DNA of 36,963 bases from a virus. Taxonomy: Duplodnaviria > Heunggongvirae > Uroviricota > Caudoviricetes. The notes below the pieces were generated by a model, which did no database searches, was not told the DNA's origin, and saw only the letters and a list, made by a program, of their open reading frames with translations. The stretch lies in IMG/VR virus record IMGVR_UViG_2563366920_000001; one strand, given 5' to 3'. Position numbers and translations under genes: made by a program. Position 1 is the stretch's first letter, and each line of letters begins with the position of its first letter. This document shows, one piece after another, positions 1,369-6,199 of the stretch.

Positions 1369-1444
1369 GCCGATATAGCTCAGTTGGTAGAGCAGCGCAT
1401 TCGTAATGCGAAGGTCGTAGGTTCGACTCCTATTATCGGCACCA
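1369..1444 (+). tRNA. thrW: tRNA-Thr (anticodon CGU)
   Basis: 76-nt cloverleaf GCCGATATAGCTCAGTTGGTAGAGC...GGTTCGACTCC...TATCGGCACCA with anticodon loop TTCGTAA and encoded CCA end. Lies downstream of proA as in E. coli. Confidence 0.9.
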
Positions 1445-4043: not shown

Positions 4044-4139
4044 TTTGTTCTCCACGTATATGCGCTGCACCGCGCTGAATTCGGGTAAAAGGAAGCCCTC
4101 ACCGTCCGGCGGTTATTGAGTCAATTACATTTCCATAAA

Positions 4140-4520
4140 TGCCCCCGTAGGGGCGGTTAGTTTCTCCACAAAACAGAGAAGAACACCTGCGGTGGCAGCC
4201 GCCCGGATGGATTGGGTTATGAGCCCGTCGTCCGGTGATGCTCTTCTCTGTTTTGTAAAAAGGACGGTACCAGCCGGAAGCAAGGGTACAAACTGGTACC
4301 GCCAGGACTACACACAGCATAAAGTTGTGGTGCCGGGTGCCTCCCGGTGCCTGGCGAAGGTTGCACACCAGGCGGGTGGGTATCCACAGAAGGTCGACTG
4401 TCAGCCTCAACCTTAACCCGCGTGCGCTGAGCCGCATTCACCACAACGCTAAGGATTCTCTCTGGTTGAAAATACTTAGCTGTTATGTGCCTGCTTTTAG
4501 CCACATCAGGCGAGGTGGAC
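4140..4520. other. GC-rich, highly self-complementary non-coding island (candidate structured RNA or cis element)
   Basis: No protein-like ORF on either strand; the listed ORFs here are Arg/Cys/His/Pro-rich junk. Perfect 15-bp inverted repeat 4168-4182 / 4242-4256 around a GC-rich 59-nt core, plus GGTACC-containing hairpins at 4264-4303. GC content is clearly higher than the AT-rich flanks. Confidence 0.3.
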
Positions 4521-4587
4521 CTAGTTATTCCCCAACAACAAGGATTCGGTTAATCTGGTTATCCCCAACAACGCAAAAGGAAAAGAA

Positions 4588-5022
4588 ATGTCCGGTAATA
4601 TCTATACGCTGTACAAATCCCACTGTGAAAATGTTGGAAAGTATCGGGGCATTGAAATCAGTGGGGTAGTGTCATCAGTCGAAATAAGCAAAGTTGAATC
4701 AAGGGCAACATTACTTACTCTTTTGGACCTTGTCTTACATGAGCACCGGAAGAAATTCGGCACTCCCTATAATCAGTTGAATGGGAAAAAGGCTCTGGTT
4801 CACCTTATTCTGATGAAGCATCACTGGATGCCAAAACAGATTAATGAGATGAAATTTGATGAACTTCTTCTTTCAATTCAGGATGAACTCACACTTGATA
4901 AAATAAGCGTAACCGCCCAGAAATTTTTAGATTATCGAGACTGGAGATCACAAATTCATCACTTTGATGATTTTGACGAAAATGAATGGGATCCTAATTT
5001 GTCTGCACAATATCTAAAGTAA
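4588..5022 (+). CDS. Hypothetical protein (144 aa), AT-rich accessory gene convergent with the PL operon
   Basis: ATG at 4588 with AAGGAA Shine-Dalgarno. Plausible soluble-protein composition, low GC. Its 3' end overlaps the 3' end of the opposite-strand small gene by 29 bp. Confidence 0.5.
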   Translation: MSGNIYTLYKSHCENVGKYRGIEISGVVSSVEISKVESRATLLTLLDLVLHEHRKKFGTPYNQLNGKKALVHLILMKHHWMPKQINEMKFDELLLSIQDELTLDKISVTAQKFLDYRDWRSQIHHFDDFDENEWDPNLSAQYLK

Positions 5023-5200
5023 CATCCTGTGATAAAACCGTGATTTCCTGATCCAGTTTTTTTAAGGAGTCTATTGTTTCCTGTCGATAAGACAGCACTT
5101 CACGAAGCTGGTTTATAGCTGCCAGCTTCTTTGTCATCCACTCATAAATTTCCTCATCTGTGTAGCCAGGCGCGACGATTTTGGGTTCTGTTTTGTGCAT
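4994..5200 (-). CDS. Small acidic PL-proximal protein (68 aa)
   Basis: ATG at 5200-5198 with GGAG upstream (the ORF track begins at a TTG five codons earlier). First ORF downstream of the predicted PL. Coiled-coil-like C-terminus; no arginine-rich motif, so not an obvious N-type antiterminator. Confidence 0.45.
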   Translation of the reverse strand: MHKTEPKIVAPGYTDEEIYEWMTKKLAAINQLREVLSYRQETIDSLKKLDQEITVLSQDVTLDIVQTN

Positions 5201-5364
5201 TTCACATCTCCTCAAGTTATCAGTTACTTGTTGATGGGGACCAGATTGTTAAAGAGCTAAGCGTCCTGTAGGGCGCTTTTTTGTTGCTAACGAATCATCC
5301 TGGACTTCATATGCCCCAGGCGGCTACTTCGTGGGCGTCCTGCCTGTTCGTTGTTTCGCTTGGG

Positions 5365-5397
5365 TACATTATGTATCTCAAAGGTACATTGTCAAGT
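5365..5397 (-). promoter_or_regulatory. Leftward early promoter PL with overlapping operator-like palindrome
   Basis: On the minus strand: -35 TTGACA (5395-5390), 17-18 bp spacer, -10 CATAAT/ATAATG (5372-5367). TGTAT-N7-GTACA inverted repeat at 5372-5388 resembles the OR palindromes. Confidence 0.45.
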
Positions 5398-5434: not shown

Positions 5435-6109
5435 TTAGGCTTTGATTTTGTATCTTCTTGGTTTTCCTGAGAAAATCACTGTACCAATTATAGAGCAATT
5501 ACCGTTGATCTTAATGTAAGGCTCAGGCCAGTTTGGGTTTAACGCTTTGAGATAACGCTGTGTCCCATCTTCTATCAACCTTTTGAAGGTGGTTTCGCCT
5601 GTATCGTGCATCAATGCAATAACGTCGTCACCGTGGCAGGCAGGTACTTCAGGATCGACAAAAATCATGTCTCCCGGGCGGTACTCATCAATCATTGAAT
5701 CACCTATCACCCGCAAGATATAAGTCATTTCCCCACAGGGTACAGGGCAGGGATACGTTTCTGCTGTGCTCAAATCAACCTCAGAATATCCAACTTCTTT
5801 CCATGCTCCGGCCTGTACCCATGATATGACAGGGACTAATGTGATTTGTTTATTAGTGATTGAAACATCAGGTTTTTTTGTGATGTTCGTTGTCTGGTGT
5901 TCTTGATCGAGCCATCCGACAGGCAGGTCGAAACATTTTTCGATGTGTCGTGCCATGCTGTCACCGATATTTTTAGTAGCACCATCTCCCATAAACCTGC
6001 TGGTCTGGGTTGGCTCGCGATCAATCATAGTGGCAAAGGAAGAATTCCCGCCAACACCATCTCTCAGTTTTCTGGCGTTAGACCGCCGGATGTCATGGAT
6101 TGTTTTCAT
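5435..6109 (-). CDS. cI: CI-type repressor (HTH plus S24 LexA-like peptidase domain, 224 aa)
   Basis: N-terminal HTH region and C-terminal autocleavage-domain character (ILRVIGDSMIDEYRPGDMIFVDPEV...GETTFKRL). ATG at 6109 sits 6 nt after the PRM -10, so the mRNA is leaderless as in lambda cI. Confidence 0.85.
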   Translation of the reverse strand: MKTIHDIRRSNARKLRDGVGGNSSFATMIDREPTQTSRFMGDGATKNIGDSMARHIEKCFDLPVGWLDQEHQTTNITKKPDVSITNKQITLVPVISWVQAGAWKEVGYSEVDLSTAETYPCPVPCGEMTYILRVIGDSMIDEYRPGDMIFVDPEVPACHGDDVIALMHDTGETTFKRLIEDGTQRYLKALNPNWPEPYIKINGNCSIIGTVIFSGKPRRYKIKA

Positions 6110-6199
6110 AACGAAATTAAAACCCTTGTACCGTTAAGGTACAAGTATCTTGAAGGTTCATTTCAATCATGTAATATGTACACCGGAGGTACATATTGT
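6110..6199. promoter_or_regulatory. Immunity switch region: PRM, PR and operator palindromes
   Basis: PRM on minus strand: -35 TTGTAC (6144-6139), 17 bp, -10 TTTAAT (6121-6116). PR on plus strand: -35 TTGAAG (6150-6155), 16 bp, -10 TAATAT (6172-6177). Palindromes TTGTACC-GTTAA-GGTACAA (6126-6144) and ATATGTAC-N7-GTACATAT (6174-6196). Confidence 0.5.

Follow-up and report, generated by a model that had tools for sequence, protein, structure and literature searches.

A convergent pair of ECs1072-family and YdfC-like genes, conserved in lytic operons of enterobacterial phages, as a possible reciprocal-expression module

What role could be served by two small convergent genes located directly beside the early promoter PL of a lambdoid prophage, and in which state of the phage would each of them be expressed? 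The question is raised by a stretch of 36,963 nucleotides (the window, that is, the whole of the DNA analyzed here), which is a lambdoid E. coli prophage resembling SfIV, SfV and e14. Shigella phage SfIV and many E. coli chromosomes match the region concerned with 98–99.9% identity. A first-pass annotation, made from the letters alone, described an AT-rich plus-strand gene for 144 aa with a good Shine-Dalgarno sequence, which converges on, and overlaps by 29 bp, a minus-strand gene for 68 aa that is the first open reading frame (ORF) downstream of a predicted PL. All of these features are borne out (Table 1). The large gene has a GC content of 37.9%, compared to 52.5% for the window, and the predicted PL is a near-consensus promoter accompanied by two repressor operators. 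The extent given for the pair, 4588–5215, holds at its left end; the 68-aa length corresponds to the ATG at 5200, while 5215 belongs to an upstream in-frame TTG. The 144-aa gene was also said to be antisense to leftward early transcription, which is correct, and the same arrangement is kept in three different lytic operons, as described below. The tRNA gene of the window is possibly the prophage attachment site.

Table 1. Features of the convergent gene pair, its surroundings and its relatives.
Feature	Sequence	Position	Strand	Remarks
tRNA gene	window	1369–1441	+	71.8 bits; sole Rfam match at gathering score within the window
Annotated protein gene over STnc100-like stretch	window	4125–4444	-	
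STnc100-like sRNA element (RF02076)	window	4255–4477	-	43.1 bits (gathering score 47), E=1.3e-7, full-length model
Annotated protein gene over STnc100-like stretch	window	4325–4669	+	
Exchangeable cassette	window	4520–5352		41% GC (window, 52.5%)
Leader of 144-aa gene	window	4529–4572	+	two TCCCCAACAAC copies (4529–4539, 4562–4572); second preceded by AATCTGGT
144-aa ECs1072-family ORF	window	4588–5022	+	AAGGA Shine-Dalgarno 8–12 nt before ATG
68-aa YdfC-like ORF	window	ATG 5200, stop 4994	-	GAGGAG 7 nt before ATG
Coding 3'-end overlap of large and small ORFs	window	4994–5022		29 bp, convergent
Terminator-like hairpin + TTTGT, inside small ORF	window	5104–5137	+	9 bp, -14.2 kcal/mol; codons KKLAAINQL (5104–5129)
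Motif copy AATCTGGTCCCCATCAACAAG in sense leader of small gene	window	5227–5247	-	27 nt before ATG
Strong hairpin + T6 between PL start and small gene	window	5259–5284	+	hairpin 5259–5278
PL operators	window	5352–5368, 5372–5388		17 bp, TGTAYC-N5-GGTACA
PL promoter, TTGACA-16-CATAAT	window	-35 5395–5390, -10 5373–5368	-	near-consensus
cI terminator	window	5423–5404	-	
cI-type S24 repressor gene	window	5435–6109	-	
Operators between cI and cro	window	6127–6193		three; 6127–6143 is a perfect palindrome
ECs1072-family gene, Salmonella phage ST64B	L004	3281–3715	+	absent from GenBank annotation; antisense, Q-like gene/holin interval
ECs1072-family gene, Klebsiella phage KPP5665-2	L005	3318–3791	+	absent from GenBank annotation; antisense, Q-like gene/holin interval
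DicF, then STnc100-like element, PPompW	L006	4695–4953	+	DicF 76.7 bits, directly followed by STnc100-like 38.7 bits; downstream of ydfC
Plus-strand (anti-PL) gene of alternative cassette, PhiR29_1	L173	1726–2454	+	
Plus-strand (anti-PL) gene of alternative cassette, SfII	L174	2059–2250	+	
Large gene of another prophage	L176	3001–3456	+	56% identical; no YdfC-like partner
Archetype ECs1072 (now ECs_5703), Sakai prophage Sp4	L178	29361–29816	-	antisense within PR operon
ORF facing ECs_5703, Sakai prophage Sp4	L178	29117–29677	+	overlap 317 bp; unannotated

The 144-aa protein is a full-length member of the ECs1072 family. It matches NF033230 ('ECs1072 family phage-associated protein') with 157.8 bits, above the curated cut-off of 70, with residues 4–144 aligned to profile positions 2–142 of 142, and it matches phrog_5286 at 1.5e-90. 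Its homologues reach down to 26–30% identity, and the relative in phage ST64B is detected in a pairwise comparison at E=5e-16. The family is small, with only 113 cluster representatives found among 1.84 billion proteins by an exhaustive profile search. Full-length members have about 145–155 residues and a single domain, the remainder being shorter fragments. An AF2 model based on an alignment of 40 sequences is all-α, with seven helices (pLDDT 89, pTM 0.86). The protein has a pI of 6.4 and a maximum Kyte-Doolittle value of 0.84 in a 19-residue window; both proteins of the pair are predicted to be soluble and mildly acidic, without a hydrophobic segment.

The first-pass annotation had proposed a search for remote homologues and structural relatives. 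For the 144-aa protein this gave a confident model but no relative in the PDB, BFVD, Pfam or PADLOC. Foldseek returned no match of the model to the PDB or BFVD at E<=0.001, a profile search of PDB sequences returned none at E<=10, and no Pfam family was found at E<=0.1. For both proteins, the defense models of PADLOC-DB 2.0 gave zero families at E<=1. Two candidate assignments were discarded. A HEPN toxin fold appeared only at E>=0.8 with a TM-score of about 0.2, and the family lacks the Rx4-6H motif. A Pfam search with 40 family members gave only matches to Acyl_CoA_thio, which are spurious, as they clash with the all-α model. In the literature searched, ECs1072 occurs in only one table, that of a 2007 microarray study, whose entry for the distant Sakai homologue is the sole datum on expression. 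No mention of WP_000016389 or WP_000549623 was found.

The 68-aa protein is a YdfC-like member of phrog_1744, which it matches at 6e-35 over residues 1–68 of 68. By tblastn, it shares 39–41% identity over 97% of its length with genes annotated as ydfC in Qin-like and PPompW prophages, while Pfam gave only sub-threshold noise. In the AF2 model (pLDDT 87), an N-terminal PGYTxEEIxEW motif is followed by one long helix (residues 15–67), and the maximum 19-residue Kyte-Doolittle value is 0.29. In the Qin-like and PPompW prophages, ydfC immediately precedes the DicF sRNA in the leftward operon under dicA control. YdfC is described in the literature as having no known function, and we found no natural function for it. 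Both ORFs are thus genes rather than chance ORFs, given the homologues, the 113 representatives and the AF2 model of the large protein and the phrog_1744 match of the small one. The statement that neither protein matches a recognized family no longer holds; both belong to families (NF033230/phrog_5286 and YdfC-like/phrog_1744) without known function.

The convergent pair is a conserved module, and we found no earlier description of the pairing in the literature. A convergent partner matching the HMM of the small protein is present in 170 of 171 fetched loci that carry the large gene, which comprise 39 distinct large proteins and are phylogenetically non-independent; in the remaining locus, the sequence is truncated by the end of its contig. 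Large and small ORFs share 29 bp in the E. coli/Shigella type and 53–98 bp in other distinct intact pairs. With tblastn, ORFs for relatives of the large protein (29–32% identical) were found in Salmonella phage ST64B and Klebsiella phages, where they had not been annotated. These genes lie between a Q-type late regulator gene and the holin gene, all annotated genes there being on the other strand; each converges on a small gene (sb50, GP45) and overlaps it at the 3' end. The same Q-holin layout is found in Serratia, Photorhabdus and Providencia genomes. The small partners in the Q-holin loci are related to the 68-aa protein of the window (hhalign probability 94%, E=1.3e-7), and they have the N-terminal motif and the coiled-coil region in common with it.

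The module occupies three contexts. In the first, as in the window, it lies beside a cI-type repressor gene at PL, with yfdR on the other side. In the second, it is located between a Q-like gene and a holin or lysozyme gene. The third is the PR operon of Sakai prophage Sp4, where the archetype of the large family is placed between a cII-like gene and a replication gene. The small-protein HMM has a single match in 49 kb, the ORF that faces the archetype there (E=5e-4). The orientation is the same in each of the three operons, the small gene being co-directional with lytic transcription and the large gene opposed to it.

The pairing is not obligatory, as indicated by exceptions of both kinds. 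Apart from the contig-end case, locus L176, from another prophage, is the only one found without a partner, and YdfC-like genes without the large gene are present in Qin and PPompW. Decay of one partner also occurs. Four Klebsiella-type loci have a nonsense-truncated small gene beside an intact large gene; the stop replaces a Lys codon within the T tract of the terminator in two of them (L125 and L129) and is located further upstream in the others (L148 and L156). The large protein is therefore tolerated in lysogens without its partner. In L113 the reverse is seen, the large gene being split and the small gene intact.

A distinctive feature of the module is a terminator-like hairpin of the plus strand that is embedded in the small ORF. 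A hairpin followed by a T tract was found there in all 14 distinct loci, 11–81 nt past the stop codon of the large gene and always at the homologous codons (K/Q)EKAALxxRL. Its stability ranges from -9 to -15 kcal/mol, compared to means of -1.4 to -5.9 kcal/mol after synonymous recoding (p between 0.003 and 0.06 per locus, and 0.003 for the window). The paired positions are kept in 84% of cells, as opposed to 36–62% in slid controls, and include one C-G to U-A double change; these loci are related, and the same hairpin forms in the small gene's own mRNA, which possibly shares in its conservation. Since the hairpin exceeds the synonymous expectation, the codon choice of the small gene is constrained to keep a terminator on the opposite strand. 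The hairpin is likely the 3' end of the 144-aa mRNA and, as a selected element, is indirect but real evidence both for this plus-strand mRNA and for its end at this site. In the window, the two mRNAs are predicted to overlap by about 145 nt as sense and antisense.

A second plus-strand terminator, between the PL start and the small gene, would stop read-through into PL and cI; an A-run opposite to it makes weak bidirectional action possible. This hairpin is kept in E. albertii. Most of the Q-holin loci examined have an intrinsic terminator no more than about 25 nt from the Shine-Dalgarno sequence of the small gene, and in ST64B a promoter is present at the end of the Q-like gene. This layout is that of lambda PR'-tR', so the small gene should need an antiterminated polymerase. 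PL of the window is judged genuine because its two operators are of the same type (TGTAYC-N5-GGTACA) as the three between cI and cro, which makes five in total. In the two contexts whose upstream signals were examined, PL and Q-holin, the small gene is thus a gene of the lytic phase, as it is the first transcribed from an operator-controlled PL in the former and follows a tR'-like terminator behind the Q-like gene in most loci of the latter.

The signals that would drive the large gene are less clear. Neither a consensus scan nor a lenient scan found a sigma-70-like promoter upstream of position 4588 in the window, which is the main weakness of the idea that this cassette is expressed in lysogens. 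Several Q-holin loci have a candidate promoter in common, TTGATA-N18-CACAAT, about 20 nt before the Shine-Dalgarno sequence of the large gene. The leaders of both genes in the window contain the motif TCCCCAnCAAC. It occurs in three copies in the window, compared to 0.05 expected by chance, and all of them are within the cassette, as part of the sense leader of one gene or the other; two follow AATCTGGT. The motif could be the site of a shared regulator. The inverted TCCCCAACAAC copies were also considered as transposon ends and rejected, since their positions miss the cassette boundaries at 4520 and 5352. The large protein of E. albertii is only 72% identical to that of the window, yet the leaders are about 96% identical.

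The pair is carried on an exchangeable cassette whose right edge abuts the PL start. In SfV, SfII, PhiR29_1 and mEp460, the cassette is swapped for unrelated genes, while both flanks are about 97% identical. The cassette type of the window is present in 397 of 5,426 complete E. coli genomes. Variable presence between conserved flanks and atypical composition are both properties of a moron. As for signals of its own, the cassette has a predicted terminator and, in the window, no recognizable promoter. Among the alternative cassettes, those of PhiR29_1 and SfII also carry a plus-strand gene, and the PL-proximal site may host anti-PL genes generally. No known defense model matched the alternative cassettes at this site; mEp460 gave a weak HTH_17/mad1 match.

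Downstream of the pair in the direction of PL, and divergent from the 144-aa gene, an STnc100-like sRNA element is part of a conserved, GC-rich stretch that separates the cassette from yfdR. STnc100/PasD is a known family of prophage sRNAs that is expressed in uninduced EHEC. Of 5,426 E. coli genomes, 3,053 contain part of the stretch bearing the element, at a median of two matching places per genome, and Klebsiella phage KPP5665-2 has STnc100 (108 bits) at the same relative position. The order of a YdfC-like gene followed by an sRNA element in PPompW matches that of the window. A very weak DicF-like match (E=2.9) is located inside the stretch. Protein genes have been annotated over it on both strands, as 'frameshifted hypothetical protein' in RefSeq and as SfIV_34/SfIV_35 in KC814930. 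Their translations look non-protein-like, and they are probably a mis-annotated sRNA locus.

We infer reciprocal expression of the two genes, in lysogeny and in lytic growth, from the presence of two real genes, their head-on geometry in three operons, the lytic-only signals of the small gene and the selected terminator; judged from the sequence, this reading is well motivated. In the lysogen, with the lytic promoters off or terminated, the 144-aa protein would be made and the small protein would not. After induction, heavy lytic transcription would collide with, and be antisense to, the transcript of the large gene and shut it off, and the small helical protein would appear as transcription from PL, PR or PR' floods the locus. 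Such mutually exclusive expression implies that the 144-aa protein is most likely an accessory protein of the prophage state, of the moron type and cytoplasmic. We tentatively favor the view that the two genes form a conserved reciprocal-expression module inserted into a lytic operon at its promoter-proximal end, which we rate at somewhat below an even chance. Our leading guess at the function, and only a guess, is that the 144-aa protein could exclude or abort other phages, and that the small protein could counteract it on behalf of the resident phage in the lytic phase.

The same observations can be read in ways in which the two proteins have no joint function. The association could be structural hitch-hiking, in which an ordinary lytic YdfC-like gene and an unrelated moron are held together by the embedded terminator and their products never interact. 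Each gene is found without the other, decay of either partner is tolerated and the terminator lies physically within the small ORF, all of which fit this explanation. We nevertheless consider it rather unlikely, because the association outlasts relocation among three operons and divergence to 26–30% identity, and a terminator would be far easier to re-evolve or replace. The unit could also act mainly as a transcriptional insulator, with antisense transcription blocking leaky lytic transcripts in lysogens and the protein being secondary. The module is indeed always promoter-proximal and upstream of harmful genes (holin, replication and kil-like genes), and terminators bracket it in the Q-holin loci. 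However, a conserved, well-folded single domain with 113 representatives and a pLDDT of 89 argues for selection on the protein, which makes an insulator very improbable as the main role.

Two further readings keep a role for the 144-aa protein and assign it differently. It could be a lytic-cycle protein expressed from a promoter of its own, for example in host takeover, with the head-on layout tuning its timing. The absence of a clear promoter in the window agrees with this, and the leader motif that both genes share would fit co-regulation better than reciprocity. For a lytic gene, a position head-on to the strongest lytic promoters (PL, PR and PR') in every context would be a poor design, and we regard this reading as improbable. 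The pair could also be a self-immunity module, in which the 144-aa protein is a cytoplasmic blocker of lytic development made in the lysogen, and the YdfC-like protein, appearing only when the lytic promoters of the resident phage become active, binds and neutralizes it; the head-on overlap and the embedded terminator would then enforce mutually exclusive expression. To this, too, we give a low probability. Under the reciprocal-expression reading that we prefer, the large protein would act in the prophage state and the small one in the lytic state.

Relatives of the module are spread through prophages of Salmonella, Klebsiella, Serratia, Proteus, Providencia and Photorhabdus, and are often unannotated. 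The recurrence of the same geometry across PL, PR and PR' operons provides a natural test case for the use of convergent transcription to separate prophage-state and lytic-state functions, and the pair is also a test case for the role of the orphan YdfC family. If the 144-aa protein proved to be an exclusion or abortive factor, it would add a fold and a regulatory layout that are absent from defense catalogues. Self-immunity, if true, would give the YdfC family its first function and represent a new kind of prophage self-immunity.

The pair does not resemble a type II toxin-antitoxin system, as the genes are convergent and gave no toxin-antitoxin matches in Pfam or PADLOC. A likeness to rexAB and sieB had been suggested by the first-pass annotation; it stands for position and, in the case of sieB, for antisense layout, and fails for homology, for membrane segments and for matches in PADLOC, Pfam or structure searches. 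In lambda, the transcript of cI also carries rexAB, running in the direction of PL, and RexB is a polytopic membrane protein. As with rexA-rexB, a putative accessory function adjoins the repressor gene in the window, and the map position is the same. However, the 144-aa gene runs opposite to cI and PL, and the pair is convergent, soluble, not homologous and free of transmembrane segments. Lambda sieB is oriented against PL, and Esc is an in-frame internal product of sieB. Like the lambda and P22 sieB genes with esc, the window has a PL-region gene that would be expressed from the prophage and whose action the phage itself might escape. The proteins of the window have no sequence or family match to SieB in Pfam; SieB is a membrane protein, while they lack a hydrophobic segment, and the partner is a separate convergent gene rather than an internal in-frame one. 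SieB halts the macromolecular synthesis of superinfecting P22-like phages, but not that of P22 itself (PMC10883804).

The lambda oop RNA and cII also have convergent transcripts that overlap at their 3' ends, as predicted here from the ORF overlap and the terminator, and the overlap places a lytic-side gene under antisense control. However, oop is a short non-coding RNA, whereas the antisense partner in the window is the mRNA of a conserved 144-aa protein. The dicB operon of Qin and PPompW (ydfA-ydfB-ydfC-dicF-dicB) likewise has a repressor-proximal leftward YdfC-like gene followed by an sRNA element, but operons of the Qin type have no antisense gene of the ECs1072 family. Lambda bor lies opposite to late transcription and is expressed in lysogens. 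The window differs from bor and other classic morons in being a two-gene convergent module with its terminator inside the ORF of the partner and no promoter found in the window; it shares with them the character of an AT-rich exchangeable insert that has its own terminator and is directed against lytic transcription.
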